Source of the DNA: Methanomassiliicoccales archaeon
GTDB lineage: Archaea > Thermoplasmatota > Thermoplasmata > Methanomassiliicoccales > UBA472
Direction of reading: 5' to 3'
NCBI GenBank assembly: GCA_036677555.1
Contig: JAVBWG010000006.1
Coordinates: 70,202 to 134,201 of the forward strand
DNA length: 64,000 nt
A program made the translations under genes and the position numbers. This document shows, one piece after another, positions 16,083 through 26,192 of this stretch (position 1 is its first letter; every line of letters starts with the position of its first letter). The notes under the pieces are model-generated. The model did no database searches. It was not told the origin of the DNA and was given only the letters and a program-made list of their open reading frames with translations.

Positions 16083-16087
16083 GAAGT

Positions 16088-16398
16088 GCTAGGCCACGGG
16101 GGTTGCCGCCCGAACCGATAGAGGTTGACCGATCACCGACTCAGCCCCGCTCCCCTTCGAGCGTAGGTAGTCCGTGGTAAGGCTGTTCCCGTCAGGGCCT
16201 GACCCGTTCCCCACGATCAGAGCAAGGGGTGCCGCCCTCCAGCTGCACCGCGATGCTGCCACCGACCCCGTAGGACAGGGCCTCAACGCCAATGATCGGG
16301 CCTCTAGCGCTCCGGATACGACGTCCCCCGCTGTCACCCCCGCATATCGACGATTACGGTGTATAAGGACACGCCGAACGTCCCGGTCAAGCCTAGCG
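16088..16398 (-). ncRNA. Signal recognition particle RNA (archaeal 7S RNA)
   Basis: The ~311-nt region has only shadow-like ORFs. On the minus strand, 5' GCUAGGC pairs with 3' GCCUAGC (terminal helix). The internal GGUCAGGCCCUGACGGGAACAGCC parallels the SRP54-binding helix-8 consensus GGUCAGGUCCGGAAGGAAGCAGCC. The TATA box TTTTTAAATA (16420-16429, minus) is centred ~26 nt upstream of the proposed 5' end. Ends are approximate. Confidence 0.7.
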
Positions 16399-16419
16399 GG
16401 TGGTCTTATCAATCGAGCG

Positions 16420-16429
16420 TATTTAAAAA
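16420..16429 (-). promoter_or_regulatory. TATA box of the SRP RNA gene
   Basis: The minus strand reads TTTTTAAATA, about 26 nt upstream of the GCUAGGC 5' end. Confidence 0.5.
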
Positions 16430-16562
16430 TTCTGCATCGGAGGACGAACGGCCGCTATAGCCAACAGCAGGATATCAAGTAATAAATAGTTTATTTGTGT
16501 TTAACATTTTAAAATTGAGTGTAGAATCAAATAATATAAATTTTTATCAAAGGGGCAGCGAG

Positions 16563-17447
16563 ATGGATAAAAATGGATCATTGAAAAGGAAGGAGGCCAT
16601 TGAAAAGGCATTGAAGGACGGTCGCTCGCACTTTGAGTTCCGCCCGGAGGCCCGCAGGTTCTTTCTTGCCAACTCGGTCAATATCGCCATCGGGATAGCC
16701 CTGGTCATCGCCGTATGGTGGATCGTGGCGGAAGCGATGATCCACACCCGCGGCGCACTGTTCCCCACCCCCCCAGAAACTTTCTCCGCGCTATGGAACG
16801 CCCTCAACGGTGCTGAACTGAACGGAGAGACGATCTACTACCACACCGGTTCATCCATGCTGCGTTGGGGAACCGGGTACGCCATAGCCCTGGTCATCGG
16901 GATCGTGGTCGGCATATCCTTCGGAACCTTGAGCCGCCTGTACGATATGGGCATGGTGTCCATCTACGTGATACAGATGATACCCGGCCTGGCCTGGGTT
17001 CCCATCGCCATGCTCATTTTCGGATTGGGCGAATCGGCGACCATATTCATCATTCTGATGACGGCCATGCCCCCCATCATCATCAACACCGCCGGCGGCA
17101 TACGCCAAGTTCCCCCGGTCTATACCAGGGTGGCGCTCATGTCCGGAAAGGACAGGCTGTCCCTGTTCGCCAGTGTTCTGATCCCCGCCGCATCCCTTTC
17201 CATAATCGACGGGATGCGCATCGGCCTCGCCAACGGTTGGAGGGTGCTTATCGCCGCGGAGATGGTCTTGGGCGCCATGGTCGGTCTCGGGGCCACGATA
17301 TACGATTCCCGTTACAGCCTGGATTTCGTCTCCGCCTTCATCTGCATAATCGTGATATGCTTCATCGGACTGGCGATAGAAAAACTGTTCTTCGCCGGCC
17401 TGGAGAACGCGGTAAGGAACCGTCTCGGACTGGACAAGGAGGCCTGA
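16563..17447 (+). CDS. ABC transporter permease, SsuC/TauC (nitrate/sulfonate/taurine) family
   Basis: About 6 TM helices with a typical family layout. Start moved to ATG 16563. Confidence 0.85.
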   Translation: MDKNGSLKRKEAIEKALKDGRSHFEFRPEARRFFLANSVNIAIGIALVIAVWWIVAEAMIHTRGALFPTPPETFSALWNALNGAELNGETIYYHTGSSMLRWGTGYAIALVIGIVVGISFGTLSRLYDMGMVSIYVIQMIPGLAWVPIAMLIFGLGESATIFIILMTAMPPIIINTAGGIRQVPPVYTRVALMSGKDRLSLFASVLIPAASLSIIDGMRIGLANGWRVLIAAEMVLGAMVGLGATIYDSRYSLDFVSAFICIIVICFIGLAIEKLFFAGLENAVRNRLGLDKEA

Positions 17448-17448
17448 G

Positions 17449-18249
17449 ATGCTCGCCTCCCTCAGGAACGTGTCCAAGGTGTTCGCCAATCCCCGCACAG
17501 GTAAGGGATTGGTGGCCCTGAACGATGTCAGCATCGAGGTCGAGCAGGGAGATTTTCTATGCCTGATCGGACCAAGCGGTTGCGGTAAGAGCACCACCCT
17601 GAACCTGCTGGCCGGGTTCGAGCATCCCAGCGAGGGAGAGGTTAGGTTCAAAGGGAAGCCCATCGCCGGCCCTTCGCCGGAACGGGGCGTCGTTTTCCAG
17701 GAGTTCAGCCTCTACCCCTGGATGGATGTGCTTCACAACGTGGCCTTCTCGGTCAGGACGGGAAGCGGATCGGAGAGGGAGGAGGTGGCCAGGAGATATT
17801 TGGGAATGGTCGGCCTATTGGACTTCGCCCATGCGATGCCCAACGAGCTCTCGGGGGGCATGAAGCAGCGGGTGGCCATAGCCCGAACCTTGGCCATGGA
17901 CCCGGACCTGCTGCTGATGGACGAGCCGTTCGGTTCTCTGGACGAGCAGACCCGGCGCAAACTGGACAATGAGGTTCTCAGCTTGTGGGAAGGACAGGAG
18001 AAGACAGTGGTCTTCGTCACCCACAGCATAGAGGAGGCATTGATGCTGGGGACCAGGGTGGTCCTCATGTCCGCCTCACCCGGACGTGTAAACAAGGAAT
18101 GGAGGATCGAATCGGCATGGCCTCGCGATCCCCTGTCCCCGGAGATGACCGCACTGAAGAAGGACATCGTGAAGAGCCTGCAGGTATGCTCCTGCGCCAA
18201 CGGCTCCCCCAGGGGCGGGTTCATCACCATGGGCGGCCTGGAAGATTGA
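17449..18249 (+). CDS. ABC transporter ATP-binding protein, SsuB/TauB-like
   Basis: GPSGCGKST, LSGGMKQRVAIAR, LLLMDEPFGSLD. Starts 1 nt after the permease stop. Confidence 0.9.
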   Translation: MLASLRNVSKVFANPRTGKGLVALNDVSIEVEQGDFLCLIGPSGCGKSTTLNLLAGFEHPSEGEVRFKGKPIAGPSPERGVVFQEFSLYPWMDVLHNVAFSVRTGSGSEREEVARRYLGMVGLLDFAHAMPNELSGGMKQRVAIARTLAMDPDLLLMDEPFGSLDEQTRRKLDNEVLSLWEGQEKTVVFVTHSIEEALMLGTRVVLMSASPGRVNKEWRIESAWPRDPLSPEMTALKKDIVKSLQVCSCANGSPRGGFITMGGLED

Positions 18250-18276
18250 ATATTGGAATGAAGGGAGGAACCAGAA

Positions 18277-19242
18277 ATGAACAGAAAATCGGTGGCGATC
18301 GTCCTTGTGATCGTTGTGGTGATCGCAGCAGTCGGCGTGGCATTCCTCTTGATGCCCCCCGATGAGGGCGAGATGGACCTGACCGTGGCCTACTCGGAGA
18401 AGATGAACTATGAGACGCTGATGGTCGCCAACGACAAGGGATACTTCGATGATGTGGGATTGAACGTCACCCCGGCCATCGTGACCGGCGGCATCCAGGC
18501 TGCGGAGGCAATCGTGACCGGCTCGGCCGACGTGGCCGCGATGGGGGACGCGCCTGCCGTGCAGCTCATCAGCAAAGGCATCGGTGCCAAGATAATCGGT
18601 CGCATCGCCGGTGCCGAGGGAATGCACCGCATCATCTCGGACGTCAACATCACCGCACCTGAGGACCTGAACGGCAAGAAGGTGGGCATGCAGCAGAGCT
18701 CCAGCTCGCACGGGGCGTTCATACAGTGGTGCGACGCCAATGATGTCAACACCGGCAACCTGACCTTCGTTTACCTGAACCCCAGCTACCTGGCGGAGGC
18801 AATGTACTCGGGCGAGATCGATGCCATGGTCGGAAGCGAGCCATGGGCCATCAATACCGAGAACCTGTGCGGCGGCTCGGTGCACGAACTTGGCAGCTCG
18901 TCCGGTCTGGGGAGCTCTTTCCCCATTGTTCTGGTGGCATCTCATAAGGCCATTTCCGAGAAGGGCGAGGCGCTCTCCCGCCTGCTTGAAGCCATGGACA
19001 TGGCCAATGATCACATCAACGCCGAATGGAACGATTCCATGGCTATATGCGCATCCCTCACCGGCCTCAGCTTTGATGACCAGTCAAAGGGCAGCGGCCT
19101 GCAGTTCTTCGAGCTGGGGTTCAACGCCACCGATGTGCAGAGCATCACCATGACCGCCATGGGCCTGGTGGACTTCGGAAAGATCAACGCCGTGCCGGTC
19201 ATAATGGACCACGTGGACCTTACCCACCTGCCGGAGGAGTGA
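18277..19242 (+). CDS. ABC transporter substrate-binding protein, NMT1/THI5/SsuA-like, TM-anchored
   Basis: N-terminal anchor AIVLVIVVVIAAVGVAFLL, followed by an SsuA/NMT1-like pattern (LTVAYSEKMNYETLMVANDKGYFDDVGLNVT, GSADVAAMGDAP). Confidence 0.75.
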   Translation: MNRKSVAIVLVIVVVIAAVGVAFLLMPPDEGEMDLTVAYSEKMNYETLMVANDKGYFDDVGLNVTPAIVTGGIQAAEAIVTGSADVAAMGDAPAVQLISKGIGAKIIGRIAGAEGMHRIISDVNITAPEDLNGKKVGMQQSSSSHGAFIQWCDANDVNTGNLTFVYLNPSYLAEAMYSGEIDAMVGSEPWAINTENLCGGSVHELGSSSGLGSSFPIVLVASHKAISEKGEALSRLLEAMDMANDHINAEWNDSMAICASLTGLSFDDQSKGSGLQFFELGFNATDVQSITMTAMGLVDFGKINAVPVIMDHVDLTHLPEE

Positions 19243-19246
19243 ACCA

Positions 19247-20308
19247 TTGGGGAGCAACGGGCGCCAGCTGTTCATGCGTTCCCTTGGGGACGAAATCCCT
19301 GAGGTCCCGCCGGTGTTCCTGCGGGACCTCACCCTGGGCCTCGATGAGACGGGATATACCACGCCGGAGGTCTGCGCAGGCGCCTACGATGCGGACAAAT
19401 CTGCAAGGTCCGTTCTGGCGCTGCATGAGCGATTGGGCCAGGACGCAGTCGTCGGCTGCATTCACTACGTGGGGCTGGAGATAGGGGCCCTTGGGGGGCA
19501 GGTGAAGTATCCCGAGCGGGGGATACCGAGCGTGGTGCGCCACCCGTTCCAGGATTCCGCCGACCCTGACCTGGTCCAATTGGACATGCGCCGGGAGGCG
19601 CCCTTTCCGAACGTGGCAGGGAGCTATCGCCTGGTCAGGGAGGGTCTCCAGGGTTCGGCGGCTCTCGTCTGCAACATCGAAGGCCCGGTGACCAAGGCTG
19701 CGCTGCTCAGGGGGATGGAGAACCTGGCCATGGACATGTACTTCGACAAGGGCCTGGCCGCCGAATACGTCGATTATGCCACAGGCCTCTCCATGGAGTT
19801 CCTTAAGGTCATCGCCTCCGAGACGGAACTGGACTGCTCGTTCCTGGCCTCGGCTTCCGACAACCCTGACATCTTCGGCCAGGAGGCGTTCCGTCGATTC
19901 ACGGTTCCCAACCTGGGCCGTCTGGTGCGCACAGCGGACGAACTCGGCCTGCCGACGGTCTTTCATCCGCACGGTGATCTCAGTTCACCGCAGAACCTGC
20001 CGCTGATGGAGGACATCATCGCCACGGGCGCGAGGGCGTTCCAATTCGCGGAGCGCAACGACCATATGCTGCTCAGGGAGGCGGCGGGGGGAAGGATCTC
20101 CCTCATGGGGGGCATCGACGCCTTCTCCACCCTGCTGCTGGGGCCGGCGGACCGGATCGTCCGGGAGACGGAGGGATTCCTTAATGACTTCCGTCCCTGG
20201 GACCGCTATGTGTTCATGTGCTCGTGCTCGCTGCACCGCGGCATGCCCCTTCAGCATGTGGACGTCATGATGGAGGCCGTCAGGAGGTTCGCTAAGAAAG
20301 GCATATGA
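19247..20308 (+). CDS. Uroporphyrinogen decarboxylase (URO-D) family protein, MtaA/MT2-like
   Basis: Length and overall pattern fit URO-D/MT2 TIM-barrel proteins: GCIHYVGLE, VCNIEGPVT, FHPHGD, MGGID, FMCSCS. TTG 19247 lies 8 nt after GGAGGAG; an alternative ATG is at 19274. Confidence 0.6.
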   Translation: MGSNGRQLFMRSLGDEIPEVPPVFLRDLTLGLDETGYTTPEVCAGAYDADKSARSVLALHERLGQDAVVGCIHYVGLEIGALGGQVKYPERGIPSVVRHPFQDSADPDLVQLDMRREAPFPNVAGSYRLVREGLQGSAALVCNIEGPVTKAALLRGMENLAMDMYFDKGLAAEYVDYATGLSMEFLKVIASETELDCSFLASASDNPDIFGQEAFRRFTVPNLGRLVRTADELGLPTVFHPHGDLSSPQNLPLMEDIIATGARAFQFAERNDHMLLREAAGGRISLMGGIDAFSTLLLGPADRIVRETEGFLNDFRPWDRYVFMCSCSLHRGMPLQHVDVMMEAVRRFAKKGI

Positions 20309-21195
20309 ACCACGGGGTGCCATATGTCCGATGCATGGCCCCGCCGGACGTCTCCGAAAAACCGCCTTGGCTGAGGACCAGGGCCGGACTGGCATCGGGC
20401 ATCGGCGTCCGGGAGGCCTTGGGGGGCCTCCGAACGGTCTGCGATTCATCCCGCTGCCCCAATCTGGGTGAATGCTGGGGAAAGGGGCATGCCACCTTCA
20501 TAATCCTGGGAAGCAGATGCACGCGCTCCTGCGCCTTCTGCGCCGTTCCATCGGGAGAACCGTCCGATGCAGATGAGGGCGAAGCGGAGAGGGTGGCCGA
20601 GGCCGTGAAGCGGTTGCGCCTCCGCCACGCGGTGATCACCTCGGTGACCAGGGACGACCTCCCGGATGGCGGGGCGAGGATCTTCGCCGATACCGTCAGA
20701 CAGATCAGATGGAACTGTCCGGGCACGACCGTCGAACTGCTGATACCCGACCTGCAGGGTGACCGGAAGGCCCTGGAGACCATCCTGGAGTCATCGCCTG
20801 ACGTATTGGGCCACAACCTGGAGACGGTCCGTTCGCTGCAGTGGATAAGGGACAGGAGGGCCAGCTACCGCCGCTCCCTGAACGTCCTGGCCACGGTCAG
20901 GGAGATATCGCCGGCCGCCATCACAAAGAGCTCCCTGATGCTGGGCCTGGGCGAAGGCAGGGACGAGGTGCTGGAAGCGTTCAGGGACCTGCTGGAGGTT
21001 GGGGTGGACCTTCTGACCCTGGGGCAATACCTTCCGCCAAAAGGAAGCTCCCTCCCGCTGCGCAGGTACGTCCCGCCCGAGGAGTTCCAGGAGCTGGAAA
21101 GGACCGCCAGGGGCCTGGGGTTCAGGGGAGTCCGCTCCGGACCGCTGGTCCGATCATCGTATGACGCTTATGCATTGTTCAAAGAGGTGATGTAA
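20305..21195 (+). CDS. lipA: Lipoyl synthase
   Basis: N-terminal cluster CPNLGECW, radical-SAM CTRSCAFC, and C-terminal RSSY. The ATG overlaps the upstream stop (ATATGA). Confidence 0.9.
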   Translation: MNHGVPYVRCMAPPDVSEKPPWLRTRAGLASGIGVREALGGLRTVCDSSRCPNLGECWGKGHATFIILGSRCTRSCAFCAVPSGEPSDADEGEAERVAEAVKRLRLRHAVITSVTRDDLPDGGARIFADTVRQIRWNCPGTTVELLIPDLQGDRKALETILESSPDVLGHNLETVRSLQWIRDRRASYRRSLNVLATVREISPAAITKSSLMLGLGEGRDEVLEAFRDLLEVGVDLLTLGQYLPPKGSSLPLRRYVPPEEFQELERTARGLGFRGVRSGPLVRSSYDAYALFKEVM

Positions 21196-21196
21196 A

Positions 21197-22252
21197 ATGC
21201 TGACAGAGGAATTTGATCCGCTCAGGGGAGATATGTTCCGCGTGATGGATGAGGAAGGCAATGTCGAGAAAGGCCGTATGCCCAAGATATCCAAGGAGCT
21301 CCTGCTGAAAGCCTACCGCACCATGCTGCTCACCCGGATGGCGGACGAGAAGGCCGTCAAGCTGCAGAGGCAGGGCCGGTTGGGCGCCTATCCGCCCAGC
21401 AAGGGTCAGGAGGCCAGCCAGCTGGGGCCGGCCATGGCCCTGAAGGAGGAGGACTGGCTGGTGTGGGCCTTCCGGGAGATGGGCGCGTTGCTCTGGAAGG
21501 GCATACCGCTGAGCACCCTATACCTCTATTGGATGGGAAACGAACTTGGCAACGTCTATCCTGATGGAGCGAGAGCAACCCCGTCCGTTGTACCGGTGGG
21601 CTCCCAGATATCCCATGCGGTGGGTATTGCATACGCCAGCAAACTCAGGGGGGAGAAGAGCGTGAGCCTTGCCTACTTCGGAGACGGCGCCACCTCGGAG
21701 GGGGATTTCCACGAAGGGCTGAACTTCGCCGGGGTCTATCGGACGCCGAACGTGTTCGTATGCCAGAACAACCAGTTCGCCATATCCACCCGGAGGTCCA
21801 GGCAGACGGCGTCCCCCACCATCGCACAGAAGGCGGCGGCGTACGGATTCCCGGGAATCCTGGTGGACGGGAACGATATACTGGCCATGTATGCGGCGTC
21901 CAAGGAGGCCGTCGAGCGCGCCCGGAATGGGGAAGGTCCCACGCTGATCGAATCCTACACCTATCGTCTGAGCGACCATACCACCTCGGACGATTGGCGC
22001 AAATACCGTTCCAAGGAGGAGGTGGCCGAATGGGAGCGCAAGGACCCCCTCAAGAGGTTCGGGACGTACCTCGCCGCTCAGGGCATGCTCAAGGACCCTG
22101 AAGGATTGACCAGGGAGCTGGGCGAGCTGGTGGAGAAGGCGGCCGCGGAGGCGGAGGCCGTGCCTGCGCCCGGCCGATCCGATGTGTTCGTCCACACTTA
22201 CGCCGAGATGCCGCCCTACCTCCGGCGTCAGATGGGGGGTGACGGGCAATGA
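21197..22252 (+). CDS. 2-oxoacid (pyruvate/branched-chain) dehydrogenase E1 component alpha subunit
   Basis: Close pattern match to Gram-positive PdhA / Thermoplasma E1alpha: QRQGRLGAYPPSKGQEASQ, TPP motif GDGATSEGDFHEGLNFA...VCQNNQFAIST. Confidence 0.9.
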   Translation: MLTEEFDPLRGDMFRVMDEEGNVEKGRMPKISKELLLKAYRTMLLTRMADEKAVKLQRQGRLGAYPPSKGQEASQLGPAMALKEEDWLVWAFREMGALLWKGIPLSTLYLYWMGNELGNVYPDGARATPSVVPVGSQISHAVGIAYASKLRGEKSVSLAYFGDGATSEGDFHEGLNFAGVYRTPNVFVCQNNQFAISTRRSRQTASPTIAQKAAAYGFPGILVDGNDILAMYAASKEAVERARNGEGPTLIESYTYRLSDHTTSDDWRKYRSKEEVAEWERKDPLKRFGTYLAAQGMLKDPEGLTRELGELVEKAAAEAEAVPAPGRSDVFVHTYAEMPPYLRRQMGGDGQ

Positions 22253-23214
22253 TGATGAACATGGTGCAGGCCATCAATGCCGCTCTGGCCGGGGAGATGG
22301 AACGTGACCCTTCGGTGGTCATCCTGGGCGAGGATGTCGGCGTCGACGGCGGCGTCTTCCGGGTCACGGACGGGCTTCTGGATCGTTTCGGGGAGCAGCG
22401 GGTCATGGACACCCCCCTGGCCGAAGCCGGCATCGCCGGAGTGGCCATCGGGATGGCCTTCAACGGCCTCCGGCCTGTCGCCGAGATCCAGTTCATGGGC
22501 TTCTCGTATCTCACGCTCAATCAGATGATCAATCATGCTGCCCGCATGCGCAACCGCACCAGGGGAAGGATCACCGTGCCCATGGTGCTGCGCATGCCCT
22601 ACGGCGCCGGCGTCAAGGCCTTGGAGCACCATTCCGAGAGCACCGAGGCGCTGTACGCGCAGATACCGGGGCTCAAGGTCGTGGTCCCTTCCACGCCCCT
22701 GGAGGCCAAAGGGCTTTTGACGTCATCAATACGCGACCCGGACCCGGTCATCTTCCTGGAGCCCACCCGCTCGTACCGCATGCTCAAGGAGGAGGTGCCG
22801 GACGGCGAATACCTGGTGCCGCTGGGAAAGGCCAGGACCGTGCAGGAGGGCGATGACGTCACAGTCATCGGATGGGGGGCGATGATACCCCTCATCCAGA
22901 GGGCGGTGGCGGAGATGCAGGCATCGGTGGAGATAATCGACCTGCGCACCATCTCCCCCATGGATTCGGATGCGGTGGTCGATTCCGTCAGGCGCACCGG
23001 AAGGGCGGTGGTGGTGCATGAGGCCCCGCGCTCCTTCGGCCCCGGGGCGGAGATAGCCTCCCGCATATATGAGGGGGCGATCCTGCAGCTGGAAGCGCCC
23101 GTGGAGCGCGTGGCCGCCCCGGACATCACGGTTCCGCTGCCGAAGGGCGAGGACCACTATTATGTGAACGAGAGGATGATCAGGGACGGCATCGAACGAA
23201 CGCTGAGGTTCTAG
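22249..23214 (+). CDS. 2-oxoacid dehydrogenase E1 component beta subunit
   Basis: GEDVGVDGGVFRVT, RVMDTPLAEAGIAG and the transketolase C-terminal pattern. 4-nt overlap with E1alpha. Confidence 0.9.
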   Translation: MMMNMVQAINAALAGEMERDPSVVILGEDVGVDGGVFRVTDGLLDRFGEQRVMDTPLAEAGIAGVAIGMAFNGLRPVAEIQFMGFSYLTLNQMINHAARMRNRTRGRITVPMVLRMPYGAGVKALEHHSESTEALYAQIPGLKVVVPSTPLEAKGLLTSSIRDPDPVIFLEPTRSYRMLKEEVPDGEYLVPLGKARTVQEGDDVTVIGWGAMIPLIQRAVAEMQASVEIIDLRTISPMDSDAVVDSVRRTGRAVVVHEAPRSFGPGAEIASRIYEGAILQLEAPVERVAAPDITVPLPKGEDHYYVNERMIRDGIERTLRF

Positions 23215-24456
23215 GTGGTCATGATGGCAACTGAGTTCAGGTTTCCGGACCTAGGCGAGGGGATCGCCGAGGGGGAGGTCAAGAAATGGCTGGTGAAGGT
23301 CGGCGACACGATCGCCAAGGACCAGTCCCTGGCCGAGGTGGAGACGGACAAGGCGGTGGTGGAGATACCGTCGCCGGTGGCCGGAAAGGTCCTTCGTCTG
23401 GACCACAAGGAGGGGGAGCTGGTCAAAGTCGGCGAGGTGCTGGCGGTCATCGGCGATGATGGCGAGACCGTCCGAAGCGCGAAGGCCCCGGAGCCGGCGG
23501 CGATCGAGGAGAGGCCTCCATCGGTGTCCGTGGTGGGCGAACTCCCCACGGATGAGGTGGTGGTCACCTCGGTAACCCAGAAGCGGTCGCCGCGGGACGT
23601 CAGGGCCATGCCGGCGGTGCGCAGGGCCGCCCGCGACCAGGGTGCGGACATAACTGCCGCCCGGGCGAGCGGTCCCAGCGGGCAGGTGCTGATATCTGAC
23701 CTGGAGTCCAGGCCGGCCCCCAGGACGGTGCCGAAGTTCGACATCTACGGCTATGTGGACAGGGTGCCCATACGCGGCATCCGGCGCACCACGGCCAAGA
23801 GGATGCTCGAATCGCAGGCGCGCACGGCCGCCGTCACCAGCATGGAGCAGGCCGACGTGACGCGGTTGGTGGGGATGAGGGAGAGGCTCAAGGGGCCGAT
23901 GAAGGAGCAGAAGGGGGTGAATCTCACCTACATGCCGTTCATCGTCACCGCCATCGTCCGAGCGCTCAAGATGCATCCCCTGCTGAACTCGATGATCGAT
24001 GATGAGCGCGAAGAGCTGATCATCAAGAAATATTACAACATCGGGGTGGCGGTGGCCATCGACGACGGGCTGATGGTGCCGGTGATAAAGGCCGCCGACC
24101 AGAAGTCCCTCTGGGAACTGGCCGAGGAGATTGCGCTCCTGGCGAAGAGCGCCCAGGAACGCAAGATAGACCTGGCGGACCTGAAGGGGGGAACGTTCAG
24201 CATCACCAATTACGGCGTGTTCGGCGGCACGTACGGAACGCCGATAATCAACTACCCGGAGACGGCCATACTGGGGATAGGGAGGATAATGGACGGGCCG
24301 CTGGCGGTTGACGGGGTGGTGAAGGTGCGCAAGGTCCTGCCCCTGTCCCTGACCTTCGACCACCGCGCTTACGATGGGGCGGTGGCCGCCAAGTTCCTGC
24401 GCGACCTGGTGAGGTTGCTGGAGAACCCGGAGGAGCTGCTGCTGAACATGGAATGA
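23215..24456 (+). CDS. Dihydrolipoamide acyltransferase (E2) of the 2-oxoacid dehydrogenase complex
   Basis: Lipoyl domain (EVETDKAVVEIPSP), peripheral subunit-binding domain (AMPAVRRAARDQGADI), catalytic motif DHRAYDG. Start is GTG 23215 or ATG 23221/23224. Confidence 0.9.
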   Translation: MVMMATEFRFPDLGEGIAEGEVKKWLVKVGDTIAKDQSLAEVETDKAVVEIPSPVAGKVLRLDHKEGELVKVGEVLAVIGDDGETVRSAKAPEPAAIEERPPSVSVVGELPTDEVVVTSVTQKRSPRDVRAMPAVRRAARDQGADITAARASGPSGQVLISDLESRPAPRTVPKFDIYGYVDRVPIRGIRRTTAKRMLESQARTAAVTSMEQADVTRLVGMRERLKGPMKEQKGVNLTYMPFIVTAIVRALKMHPLLNSMIDDEREELIIKKYYNIGVAVAIDDGLMVPVIKAADQKSLWELAEEIALLAKSAQERKIDLADLKGGTFSITNYGVFGGTYGTPIINYPETAILGIGRIMDGPLAVDGVVKVRKVLPLSLTFDHRAYDGAVAAKFLRDLVRLLENPEELLLNME

Positions 24457-25206
24457 TCAGCGTTCGAACGTCCAATCGTCATTGGCATAGCGCAGCTTGG
24501 CGATGACCTCCGCCCTTGCCAGCTCATCGGAGGTGAGGTCCCCGGCGTACCATTCCCGGTTCATGATGAAGGCGTTGGCAATGGCCGCCGCCACATACTC
24601 CCAGGGGACCTTCCTCTGCTCCCTCACGCTGGTGACGCGTTCCGCCGGGTCGGCCAGGGAATGGGATTCCAGCTTGTCCTTCGGCACCTTGAGCACGGAG
24701 AACATCTTGGCCCGGTCCAGGTCGTAGATGAGCGTGCCATGCTGCATGAAGATCCCCTTTCGGCGGGACTGCGCGCTCCCGCTGATCTTCTTGCCGTTCA
24801 CCAGCACGTCGTTGATCGGCTCGAACGTCCCATCGATGCCGATGAGCTTGAGAGCATTTACCGTCCAGCCGCCTATCTCACGGTACGCTTCGTTGATGTC
24901 GGCCGGCATCATCTCCTCCGGGCAGATGACGCTGTAGGTGATCTCCCGGTCGTGGAACACCGCGCCTCCGCCGGTGCTCCTCCGCACAACGTCGACGCCG
25001 AGCCGCCGGCACCCTTCCAGGTCCACGACCTCGTCCAGCTTCTGGAAGCGGCCGATGCTCACCGCAGCGGGCTCCCAGCCGTAGAAACGCAAGGTCGGGC
25101 CGGCGACCCGGAAGGATACCGCCTCTGCGATCGCCTCGTCCAGCGCCATGTTGTAGGCCGCGCCGGCCTTCTCGTATCCGAGGACCCTCCATCTCTTTCT
25201 CAGCAT
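24457..25206 (-). CDS. lplA: Lipoate-protein ligase A, catalytic domain protein
   Basis: RRSTGGGAVFHD and GKKISGSAQ motifs. 249 aa without the C-terminal accessory domain, as in Thermoplasma LplA. Confidence 0.85.
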   Translation of the reverse strand: MLRKRWRVLGYEKAGAAYNMALDEAIAEAVSFRVAGPTLRFYGWEPAAVSIGRFQKLDEVVDLEGCRRLGVDVVRRSTGGGAVFHDREITYSVICPEEMMPADINEAYREIGGWTVNALKLIGIDGTFEPINDVLVNGKKISGSAQSRRKGIFMQHGTLIYDLDRAKMFSVLKVPKDKLESHSLADPAERVTSVREQRKVPWEYVAAAIANAFIMNREWYAGDLTSDELARAEVIAKLRYANDDWTFER

Positions 25207-25475
25207 CTCAATCCCCTCAGCAGGAAGGCCAGGTCAGACGGGCCGAAGCCCGCCGTCCGGCATCCGTTCCTTGACAGGTAATCAGATATATCGCCTTCCG
25301 GGTCCTCGGACCTCCAGACCTTCCTTTCGACAAGAAAGGTCTCCAGTCCCTCCAGCCCTTCCTCGGGATGAAAGAAGAAATCGCCGCTGATCCTGATGGC
25401 CTCGACCTCATCGTTCTGACAGGTGATGTCCAGGATCAGGGTCTTTCCTCCGGGGACCCTGAGCCTCCGTTCCAA
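25200..25475 (-). CDS. lplB: Lipoate-protein ligase accessory (C-terminal domain) protein, LplB-like
   Basis: 91-aa protein that overlaps the lplA start by 7 nt. Its position and size match the separate LplB of the bipartite Thermoplasma ligase. Assigned mainly by context. Confidence 0.6.
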   Translation of the reverse strand: MERRLRVPGGKTLILDITCQNDEVEAIRISGDFFFHPEEGLEGLETFLVERKVWRSEDPEGDISDYLSRNGCRTAGFGPSDLAFLLRGLRC

Positions 25476-25479
25476 CGGT

Positions 25480-25764
25480 TCACCCCTTGGCCCAGGCCAC
25501 CAGCTTGGCCATGTCGATGCGGCCGCAGATGGCCTTTCCCGTGACCTCGTTATAAAAGGCAGGAACGCCCAGGTCCCCGCCGCAGGCCGGGGCGATGGTG
25601 TCCGCCAGGGAGCGCATTAGCTTGGCGTTCTCCTCGTTGTGCCATACTTCCAGCCTCTCCAGCTTGATCCCCGTCTCGGCCTCGAACTGGTCGACCACCG
25701 GCGTCAGCTTGCGACAGTGGGGGCATTCCCTTCCATGGAACCAGATCAGTCTACTTCCGCTCAT
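25480..25764 (-). CDS. Thioredoxin-fold protein (CPHC active site), glutaredoxin/thioredoxin-like
   Basis: WFHGRECPHCRKL near the N-terminus, 94 aa. 4-nt overlap with the upstream FTR-like gene. Confidence 0.7.
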   Translation of the reverse strand: MSGSRLIWFHGRECPHCRKLTPVVDQFEAETGIKLERLEVWHNEENAKLMRSLADTIAPACGGDLGVPAFYNEVTGKAICGRIDMAKLVAWAKG

Positions 25765-26192
25765 TTGTCATCCCTCTTGACGAAAAGCCCGCACCAGCAT
25801 TCCCCCTCCTCCTTGAAGGTCGGCTGCCGGATGAAGTTGCATGGGCAGATGAGATTGAGGTCCTTGCCGCGATCGCCGGTGGTGATTCGGCAGGGGCAGT
25901 AGCGCTGCCCCTTCCCATTCAGGTTCTCCAGGACCCCTCTTGAAAGAAGCTCCACCTCGTCGGCCTTGTCCGTCAGCTTGATGGTCGCGCTCCGCTCGGA
26001 GAACTGCCTCCAGGCCGCCACGACCTTTGACTGGTCATCCAGGGGCGCGTGGTCCTTGCCGATTATCTCCAACGCCTCGCCGAGGTCCGAGAGCACGAAG
26101 GCGTTCTTCGCACCGCAGGTAGGACATACCTCCGGCGGCTTGTTGCCGAGGTGTATGTCATTGCAGACGTGGCATCTCCAAAGCTTCTTCAT
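25761..26192 (-). CDS. Rubredoxin-like domain fused to ferredoxin:thioredoxin reductase catalytic-subunit-like domain (FTRc/FDR-like)
   Basis: N-terminal CHVC-x14-CPTC rubredoxin-type knuckles. C-terminal CPC-x14-CPC-x13-CWCGLF resembles the FTRc CPC...CPC...CHCMLF motif. Confidence 0.7.
   Translation of the reverse strand: MKKLWRCHVCNDIHLGNKPPEVCPTCGAKNAFVLSDLGEALEIIGKDHAPLDDQSKVVAAWRQFSERSATIKLTDKADEVELLSRGVLENLNGKGQRYCPCRITTGDRGKDLNLICPCNFIRQPTFKEEGECWCGLFVKRDDK

Follow-up and report, generated by a model that had tools for sequence, protein, structure and literature searches.

Two gene modules in one compact array: an importer/MtaA-fold enzyme cassette joined to a lipoylation and pyruvate dehydrogenase-type unit in a Methanomassiliicoccales archaeon

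Why would a methanogen keep an uptake system, a URO-D-fold enzyme and a lipoate-dependent dehydrogenase in one unbroken row of genes? The question is raised by a locus in the 64,000-nucleotide stretch of Methanomassiliicoccales DNA analysed here (the window), where eight genes follow each other head to tail on the plus strand between positions 16563 and 24456. A sequence-only reading of this DNA assigned them to an ABC (ATP-binding cassette) importer, a URO-D enzyme (hereafter the HPH enzyme), the lipoyl synthase LipA and the E1alpha, E1beta and E2 subunits of a 2-oxoacid dehydrogenase. Open reading frames and domain profiles that we derived independently confirm the eight genes, agree with their assignments and reproduce all seven junction distances (Table 1). 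We propose, with reasonable though not high confidence, that the array combines two functionally independent modules in one compact and probably co-transcribed unit, in which module A likely serves methyl uptake and transfer and module B is of the pyruvate dehydrogenase (PDH) type.

The host genome (1.98 Mb in 13 contigs, 99.9% complete) belongs to a methanogen of the order Methanomassiliicoccales and contains mcrA. Taken on its own, the packing of the array is weak evidence, because 45% of neighbouring genes on one strand are no more than 30 nt apart in this genome (rough calls of genes of at least 100 aa). For genes of this size, about three tight eight-gene runs are expected by chance and one is seen, which is the present array. 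The permease starts at ATG 16563, and the resulting 294 aa equal the permease length called in relatives. A GGAGG/GAGGT-like motif precedes all eight gene starts.

Distribution of the two modules

The URO-D protein, E2, the substrate-binding protein (SBP), the lipoate-protein ligase LplA and a candidate dihydrolipoyl dehydrogenase (E3) were searched for in 261 species genomes of the order, and 20 E2 loci and 63 URO-D loci were retrieved for neighbourhood comparison. The synteny comparison, which the sequence-only reading had proposed as a check, shows that the linkage is not unique to the host genome. Five families (f1, f2, f3, f4 and f6) keep a common backbone of NrdD, an unassigned protein, methanogenesis marker protein 2 (Mmp2), the signal recognition particle (SRP) RNA gene, a variable slot and LipA-E1alpha-E1beta-E2. 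Convergent to this unit are the genes for LplA, LplB, a thioredoxin and a ferredoxin:thioredoxin reductase (FTR)/rubredoxin protein. The slot is empty (∼0.5 kb) in six genomes (G243, G218, G234, G240, G224, G225), holds an isochorismatase-family gene in three (G001, G014, G005) and carries fumarate reductase and fumarase-like genes in G025. In its fourth state, it is filled by the four-gene cassette permease-ATPase-SBP-URO-D. This is the case in most genomes of the host genus (g1), in two of six g7 genomes and in G002, a member of genus g10 in another family. Here, an isochorismatase gene, a run of seven T and an AT-rich stretch come between the cassette and lipA. Families f2, f3 and f4 include loci in which a same-strand isochorismatase-family hydrolase gene directly precedes lipA; it may have occupied the slot at an earlier time.

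Most genomes with both modules hold them far apart or on different contigs. The modules share a contig yet are separated by 0.2–1.8 Mb in G243, G218 and G025, and they are distant or on separate contigs in G035 and others. The cassette stands by itself beside unrelated genes in Methanomassiliicoccus luminyensis, where URO-D identity is 45%, in a further chromosome-level assembly (L015, record matching G218) and in family f6; L015 counts integrase and TnsD-like genes among its neighbours. In family f7, none of the 174 genomes yielded an E2, though 11 of them carry the SBP gene of the cassette. Within the host genus, both modules occur together in at least ten genomes, and three loci (L042, L043 and L044) represent genomes that have retained the cassette and lost lipA-E1-E2. 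The position of the cassette has shifted among close relatives, since the out-of-slot copy of G243 clusters with the in-slot copies of g7 in a quick tree (SH-aLRT support; the G002 copy, L018, failed the motif filter and was left out).

What is conserved is the linkage between the importer and the URO-D enzyme: of the 39 genomes with an SBP match, 34 have the URO-D gene as the immediate 3' neighbour of the SBP gene. As their distributions, positions and losses are independent, there is a strong argument against an obligatory functional link between the importer/URO-D genes and LipA with the dehydrogenase. In the array, an accessory uptake/methyltransferase cassette has been fused to a conserved lipoylation/PDH unit, and this fusion is specific to the lineage.

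A decayed cassette is seen in another genome of the host genus, G246. Here, a frameshifted remnant lies between the SRP RNA gene and lipA (L033:4838-6111), in which permease residues 3–124 are joined to URO-D residues 226–349 across an internal deletion of ∼3 kb; lipA-E2 is retained.

Table 1. Features of the array and its flanks in window coordinates, with elements upstream of lipA in other loci (locus:position).
Feature	Coordinates	Strand	Details
Archaeal SRP (7S) RNA gene	16087..16398	-	Rfam RF01857, 168 bits vs gathering score 96.5
AT-rich intergenic region with TATA-like boxes	16420..16547		A/T-only stretches
ABC importer permease, NitT/TauT type	16563..17447	+	294 aa; PF00528 (BPD_transp_1)
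Junction permease/ATPase	17447/17449		1 nt
ABC importer ATPase	17449..18249	+	266 aa; PF00005
Junction ATPase/SBP	18249/18277		27 nt
SBP, NMT1/SsuA family	18277..19242	+	321 aa; PF09084/PF13379
Junction SBP/URO-D	19242/19247		4 nt
URO-D/MtaA-fold enzyme, HPH subfamily	19247..20308	+	353 aa; TTG start
Junction URO-D/lipA	20308/20305		-4 nt, ATGA overlap
Lipoyl synthase LipA	20305..21195	+	296 aa; NF004019, 354 bits vs cut-off 203; PF04055 radical SAM
Junction lipA/E1alpha	21195/21197		1 nt
2-oxoacid dehydrogenase E1alpha, PDH type	21197..22252	+	351 aa; TIGR03181, 447 vs cut-off 411
Junction E1alpha/E1beta	22252/22249		-4 nt
E1beta	22249..23214	+	321 aa; PF02779 + PF02780; NF006667, 297 vs cut-off 321
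Junction E1beta/E2	23214/23215		0 nt
E2 dihydrolipoyl acyltransferase	23215..24456	+	413 aa; lipoyl, E3-binding (PSBD) and catalytic domains
Lipoate-protein ligase large subunit LplA	24457..25206	-	PF21948, 171 bits; NF053750-like
Lipoate-protein ligase small subunit (LplB-like)	25200..25475	-	91 aa; NF053749, 42 bits, under cut-off 65
Thioredoxin-like 94-aa protein and rubredoxin-fused FTR catalytic-subunit homologue	25480..26192	-	Conserved with LplAB behind E2
14-mer AAAGTAGTAAAACC	L017:7285, L048:1386, L020:6695, L022:6018, L032:7216, L034:6320		Upstream of lipA
Isochorismatase-family genes	L018:6304-6906, L026:7455-8165, L028:5252-5887, L032:7254-7856		Upstream of lipA

The importer and the HPH enzyme

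The three importer proteins can be placed in the wider NitT/TauT-NMT1 family, and none of them reaches an equivalog or subfamily cut-off for SsuABC or TauABC. The permease matches the ntrB, TauC and SsuC models below their cut-offs (TauC 100 vs 342), and the TauB/NtrCD-like ATPase obtains 224 bits with TauB (cut-off 357). The SBP scores 108 bits against TIGR01728 (SsuA_fam, cut-off 163.5) and has SsuA-type and TauA binders as its nearest solved structures. SsuABC and TauABC have the same three-component layout, and it is among them that all three proteins find their best matches by family and by structure. In contrast to these systems, the importer genes described here are linked to a methyltransferase-fold enzyme instead of a desulfonating oxygenase, and bacterial versions of the cassette add an OprO/P-like porin. 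Such porins belong to an anion-selective family. TRAP (tripartite ATP-independent periplasmic) transporters, which adjoin the HPH enzyme in two deltaproteobacterial loci, usually transport organic anions. Together with the proximity of the SBP to SsuA and TauA, this suggests that the substrate is probably a small anion.

The AlphaFold model of the HPH enzyme (pLDDT 92) superposes on the methyltransferase MtaA (4AY7/4AY8) with TM-scores of 0.85–0.89, and MtaA 4AY7 is its best sequence match among solved proteins. With 103 bits vs 235, the enzyme fails the cut-off of the MtaA/CmuA family (TIGR01463). Where MtaA carries its zinc motif H-x-C, the enzyme reads H240-P-H242; its C327 is aligned with the third ligand of MtaA. 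This H-P-H...C site is invariant in ten diverse members and present in ∼50 loci, which also keep the motifs P-x-F-[LP]-R-D-L-T, F-H-P-H-G and S-C-S-[LVI]-H-R (FLRDLT, FHPHG and SCSLHR in the host enzyme). The loci span Methanomassiliicoccales, Methanohalarchaeum, Armatimonadota, Bacillota, Thermodesulfobacteriota and others; one relative with 66% identity is labelled Methanosuratus. The invariant residues H240, H242 and C327 follow a MetE/MtaA-like metal-ligand pattern, in which E269 is a possible fourth ligand. In the quick tree, a long and well-supported branch divides the HPH enzymes from the MtaA-like paralogues of the host genome. Judged by sequence, the HPH enzyme represents a distinct subfamily of MtaA-fold enzymes.

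The methylcobamide:coenzyme M (CoM) methyltransferases MtaA, MtbA and MtsA share with the HPH enzyme the TIM-barrel fold and aligned metal-ligand positions (PDB 4AY7). In contrast, identity is 22%, and H-x-H...C stands against H-x-C...C. Within the superfamily, S-methyltransferases use His-Cys-Cys, and O-demethylases swap Cys for carboxylates (bioRxiv 10.1101/2023.07.31.551370).

Uroporphyrinogen decarboxylase HemE was also considered as an identity for the enzyme and rejected. Its NCBIfam hits include no HemE model, and phmmer matches to solved HemE chains are confined to the C-terminus (residues 254-350, the last ∼100). An ESM Atlas look-up returned generic 'URO-D family' clusters only.

Longer HPH enzymes of 435–461 aa, with a Cys-rich zinc-ribbon extension at the C-terminus, occur in five loci from Methanomassiliicoccus-type metagenome-assembled genomes (MAGs; L054, L057, L058, L059 and L066), and four of the five are missing the ABC genes. 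In L054 and L058 the extended enzyme is followed by proteins of ∼125, ∼540 and ∼465 aa, annotated in L054 as a zinc-ribbon protein, 'unknown' and a radical SAM/SPASM protein, respectively.

A corrinoid protein gene adjoins the HPH enzyme in at least eight loci of several phyla (L070, L072, L073, L081 and L100–L102 among them). In Methanohalarchaeum and a related contig, the order is corrinoid protein, HPH enzyme and major facilitator superfamily (MFS) transporter, and a Methanosuratus-like contig has MFS transporter, HPH enzyme and corrinoid protein. Bacillota, Armatimonadia and other bacteria encode an ABC importer with one or two SBPs, an OprO/P-like porin, the HPH enzyme and a corrinoid protein; in L102 this set is followed by a second URO-D paralogue. 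HPH enzymes with dedicated importers are shared between anaerobic bacteria and three lineages of methyl-reducing methanogens (Methanomassiliicoccales, Methanohalarchaeum and Methanosuratus). The host genome itself contains seven B12-binding-domain matches and one MtrA-like gene outside the array.

Several side observations concern the same genes. The MtrA-like gene of the host (C6:228815-229222, L107) lies ∼95 kb past the window end, near mcrA and two MtaA-like paralogues; the order has been reported to lack the Mtr complex (PMC4153887). In the f7 genome G181, a 257-aa MtrA-like corrinoid-binding protein (PF04208; L105:3624-4397) replaces the HPH enzyme after the same ABC importer. The f7 genome G184 (L103) has this importer as well, and no URO-D gene was detected there. 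In Desulfosarcina cetonica JCM 12296 (L078:1065-8053), an LplA-LipA fusion and a flavin adenine dinucleotide (FAD)-dependent oxidoreductase are encoded directly 5' of permease-ATPase-SBP-HPH enzyme, with transposases on the 3' side. This is a second, independent neighbourhood of lipA and the cassette.

How does the cassette compare with known methyltransferase systems? MtpC-MtpA-MtpP of Methanosarcina acetivorans, whose operon order and MtpP transporter were reportedly described by Fu and Metcalf in 2015, likewise encodes an MtaA-like, substrate-specific methyltransferase for an anionic methyl compound together with a dedicated transporter. By gene layout, it resembles the corrinoid/enzyme/MFS arrangement of the HPH loci in Methanohalarchaeum, Methanosuratus and the related contig. 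It differs from the present cassette, which has an ABC system with an SsuA-like SBP and no corrinoid gene. MtpA is the methylmercaptopropionate:cob(I)alamin methyltransferase of M. acetivorans (bioRxiv 10.1101/548461). Homologue searches brought up no Methanosarcina protein among the relatives found. The Type 1 mlp clusters of Kountz and Balskus are similarly widespread in bacteria and archaea, encode MtaA-like UroD-superfamily and corrinoid proteins and have no physiological substrate assigned. However, Mlp1-3 keep His-Cys-Cys, as opposed to His-His-Cys in HPH, and the clusters include a RamA/RACE activase. The text of that paper names no ABC transporter or SBP (bioRxiv 10.1101/2023.07.31.551370), whereas the HPH subfamily is defined by its linkage to transporters. 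We found no paper that unites uroporphyrinogen decarboxylase, Methanomassiliicoccales and corrinoid, and Borrel et al. 2014 (PMC4153887) mention neither the cassette nor lipoate or 2-oxoacid dehydrogenases. The cassette is apparently an undescribed variant of the corrinoid-linked methyltransferase systems.

The dehydrogenase module and transcription of the array

The best solved match of E1alpha is the Geobacillus PDH E1alpha (303 bits vs 219–229 for branched-chain 2-oxoacid dehydrogenase chains), and that of E2 is the Geobacillus PDH E2 (320 bits). Both subunits are much nearer to Geobacillus PDH than to branched-chain enzymes or the Thermoplasma E2. E1alpha passes its PDH equivalog cut-off, E1beta falls slightly under its own, and E2 has all three domains. 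These profile matches identify module B as a predicted pyruvate/2-oxoacid dehydrogenase of the Geobacillus type with lipoyl synthase and ligase. The PDH of Geobacillus stearothermophilus (pdhABCD; 1W85, 3DUF) has the same heterotetramer-type E1alpha/E1beta and an E2 with one lipoyl domain, a peripheral subunit-binding domain (PSBD) and the catalytic domain. In contrast, the archaeal operon contains no E3, is led by lipA and is met by convergent lplA-lplB, thioredoxin-like and FTR/rubredoxin genes, and its host is a strictly anaerobic methanogen.

No E3 gene was found in the cluster. An E3-like pyridine-nucleotide disulfide oxidoreductase is encoded beside a PHP-domain gene on contig C12, outside the window (166934-168331, minus strand; L006:1459-2859), and stays below the cut-offs of NF004947 (578 vs 592) and TIGR01350 (332 vs 409). 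The E3-like gene loosely tracks E2 across the order: most E2-bearing genomes have it, as do genus g13 and eight f7 genomes in which no E2 was found.

The SRP RNA gene, on the minus strand, forms the upstream boundary of the array and reaches very high depth in two RNA libraries. As it occupies the same stretch, a 107-aa open reading frame at 16089-16412 is spurious. Further 5' lie the genes for Mmp2 and a 192-aa protein without assignment. At the other end, LplA is convergent with E2 and the two stops abut; the LplB-like gene adjoins LplA throughout the order.

Are the eight genes transcribed together? Three of the window's 24 A/T-only stretches fall into the AT-rich region between the SRP RNA and permease genes. 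The TATA-like box TATTTAAAAATT at 16420 is ∼25 nt from the 5' end of the SRP RNA, and a second one, AAATAATATAAATTTTTAT, occupies 16529-16547, 16–34 nt ahead of the permease ATG. The region is a probable divergent promoter region, and it is the sole such signal for the eight genes. Neither a run of at least five T nor an A/T-only 10-mer occurs between 16563 and 24456, in line with the sequence-only reading, which saw no T-rich terminator between the genes; in 19800-20305, the end of the URO-D gene, no A/T-rich 8-mer occurs. At the level of sequence signals, then, no promoter or terminator was detected that would separate the transporter, URO-D and dehydrogenase genes, which the same reading had named as grounds for abandoning a single unit. 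A scan for sigma-70 promoters and bacterial-type intrinsic terminators produced hits at the level of shuffled sequence, with 7 terminator hits vs an expectation of 7.1; models of this kind are not applicable to archaea.

Other genera offer a comparison. A 14-mer, AAAGTAGTAAAACC (at most two mismatches), is found 40–65 nt upstream of lipA in six loci of genera g3, g6, g7 and g11, and in the two g7 loci it sits within the URO-D/lipA spacer. The motif may serve the lipA-PDH unit as a promoter or operator. It is absent from the window and from every locus of the host genus, where URO-D and lipA overlap or directly adjoin. Here, the element that lipA once had upstream was apparently lost, and lipA would now be read from farther upstream. 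The remnant in G246, in which just the two cassette ends nearest the promoter and nearest lipA are left, would fit this reading.

At the RNA level, one 418-nt contig of a wastewater metatranscriptome covers 20184-20601 and so bridges URO-D and lipA, with DNA carry-over being possible. Contigs from three metatranscriptomes (two studies) patchily cover lipA to lplA at depth 2–6 (20184-25600) and almost none of 16548-20180. Missing contig cover is no evidence, so neither silence nor a separate promoter can be read from the latter, and contigs of RNA libraries cannot reveal where transcripts start or end. The junctions, the lack of internal signals, the missing 14-mer and the bridging contig make co-transcription of the array as one unit plausible in the host genus. 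To this extent, the single transcription unit of the sequence-only reading may hold.

The contigs over lipA, E1, E2 and lplA, which come from an anaerobic digester and wastewater, are at least 95% alike and most of them at least 99%. This similarity indicates that the host organism or close kin was present in these samples.

What the cassette may do

Module A (16563-20308) is a mobile four-gene cassette consisting of a NitT/TauT-type ABC importer with an SsuA-like SBP and the MtaA-fold HPH enzyme, a predicted metalloenzyme. Its most likely job would be the uptake of a small methylated anion. The HPH enzyme may then pass the methyl group of this compound to a corrinoid protein encoded elsewhere in the genome, and the transfer would feed H2-dependent methyl-reducing methanogenesis. 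Module B (20305-24456 with the convergent LplA-LplB) encodes a PDH-type E1alpha-E1beta-E2 together with lipoyl synthase and ligase. A more specific idea is that the HPH enzyme and its dedicated importer form the entry for an unrecognised methanogenic substrate, anionic and methylated, by way of a His-His-Cys site new to corrinoid methyltransferases. We put this forward tentatively, as a possibility that we would not yet bet on. Candidates for the substrate are sulfonates or carboxylates that bear a methylthio, methoxy or methyl-ester group.

Several observations weigh against the two-module proposal as a whole. None of the Methanomassiliicoccales loci examined has a corrinoid protein in or beside the cassette. 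His-His-Cys is absent among the sites described for characterised corrinoid methyltransferases (bioRxiv 10.1101/2023.07.31.551370), and with a zinc motif unlike all of these the chemistry of the HPH enzyme could differ. lipA adjoins the cassette in three genera of archaea and, in an independent case, as an LplA-LipA fusion in Desulfosarcina cetonica, which is more than we would expect of unrelated modules. An LplA-like gene is present in all 11 f7 genomes that hold the SBP, vs 50 of 174 in f7 overall. Finally, RNA support comes from one short contig of a metatranscriptome that may contain DNA.

The alternative that survives best is scavenging of CoM. Here, CoM, methyl-CoM or a similar sulfonate would enter through the SsuA-like importer and be methylated or demethylated by the enzyme acting as an MtaA-like MT2. 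CoM is an aliphatic thiol-sulfonate, the nearest relatives of the SBP are the aliphatic-sulfonate and taurine binders SsuA and TauA, and among characterised enzymes the methylcobamide:CoM methyltransferase MtaA comes closest. However, the soft His-Cys-Cys site typical of S-methyltransferases is altered to His-His-Cys, and the cassette is also found in Armatimonadota, Bacillota and sulfate reducers, which to our knowledge do not use CoM. Biosynthesis of CoM is moreover predicted in Methanomassiliicoccales (PMC4153887). We consider scavenging unlikely.

Somewhat less probable still is a role in lipoylation, in which the cassette would import lipoate, octanoate or a sulfur-bearing precursor for LplA/LipA, or recycle a modified lipoyl compound. 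The sequence-only reading had suggested an importer of this kind. In favour of such a role is the position of the cassette next to lipA in g1, g7 and g10 and behind the LplA-LipA fusion of D. cetonica. Besides the LplA excess in f7, all eight f7 genomes with an E3-like flavoprotein fall among the 11 SBP holders. Five SBP-holding f7 genomes that were tested have LplA and no LipA over the cut-off, so they would rely on salvage. Only three to five genera are involved, however, and shared ancestry suffices to explain these co-occurrences. The SBP resembles sulfonate and taurine binders, not fatty-acid binders, and most genomes with both modules keep them separate. The lipoate reading is outweighed by the enzyme subfamily, which is tied to corrinoid proteins in at least eight loci of several phyla and repeatedly adjoins other types of transporter.

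The sequence-only reading had also considered a single catabolic pathway, in which the URO-D-fold enzyme turns the import into a 2-oxoacid or its precursor and E1/E2 oxidatively decarboxylates the product. The tight packing of the eight genes, the translational overlap between URO-D and lipA and the preservation of the arrangement in at least ten g1 genomes would fit such a route. It is largely refuted by the phyletic pattern: the modules are distributed and lost independently, and the cassette occurs in bacteria and in f7 genomes where no E2 was found. Nor does the E1/E2 complex need an exotic substrate, as E1alpha passes the PDH equivalog and E1/E2 are nearest to an ordinary Geobacillus PDH. 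We regard a common pathway as very improbable.

A cofactor-independent, HemE-like decarboxylase of an imported carboxylated compound is the least credible alternative: HemE acts on acetate side chains, the enzyme has a Pfam URO-D match and true uroporphyrinogen decarboxylases superpose on it at TM 0.79–0.82, but the missing HemE model hit, the limitation of HemE similarity to the last ∼100 residues, the invariant metal-ligand pattern and the frequent corrinoid neighbours of the subfamily all speak against it.

As the pathway from importer to dehydrogenase does not hold, the operon gives no ground for postulating a new catabolic route. Instead, the importer/HPH cassette emerges as a conserved, mobile and apparently undescribed unit of methyl-reducing methanogens and anaerobic bacteria. 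If it is true that the cassette feeds methyl groups to corrinoid proteins, this would point to an unrecognised precursor of methane, and the cultured Methanomassiliicoccus luminyensis, which carries the cassette, makes this reading testable. For the dehydrogenase, an archaeal survey concluded that lipoylation of 2-oxoacid dehydrogenase complexes was lost in obligately anaerobic methanogens (PMC3904984). In contrast, many non-host-associated Methanomassiliicoccales retain a complete lipoylation and PDH-type gene set, so far mentioned only in passing as a PDH complex in an environmental Methanomassiliicoccus MAG (PMC7824343). The array further illustrates that, in a compact archaeal genome, genes can become tightly packed through secondary operon fusion, without a common function.

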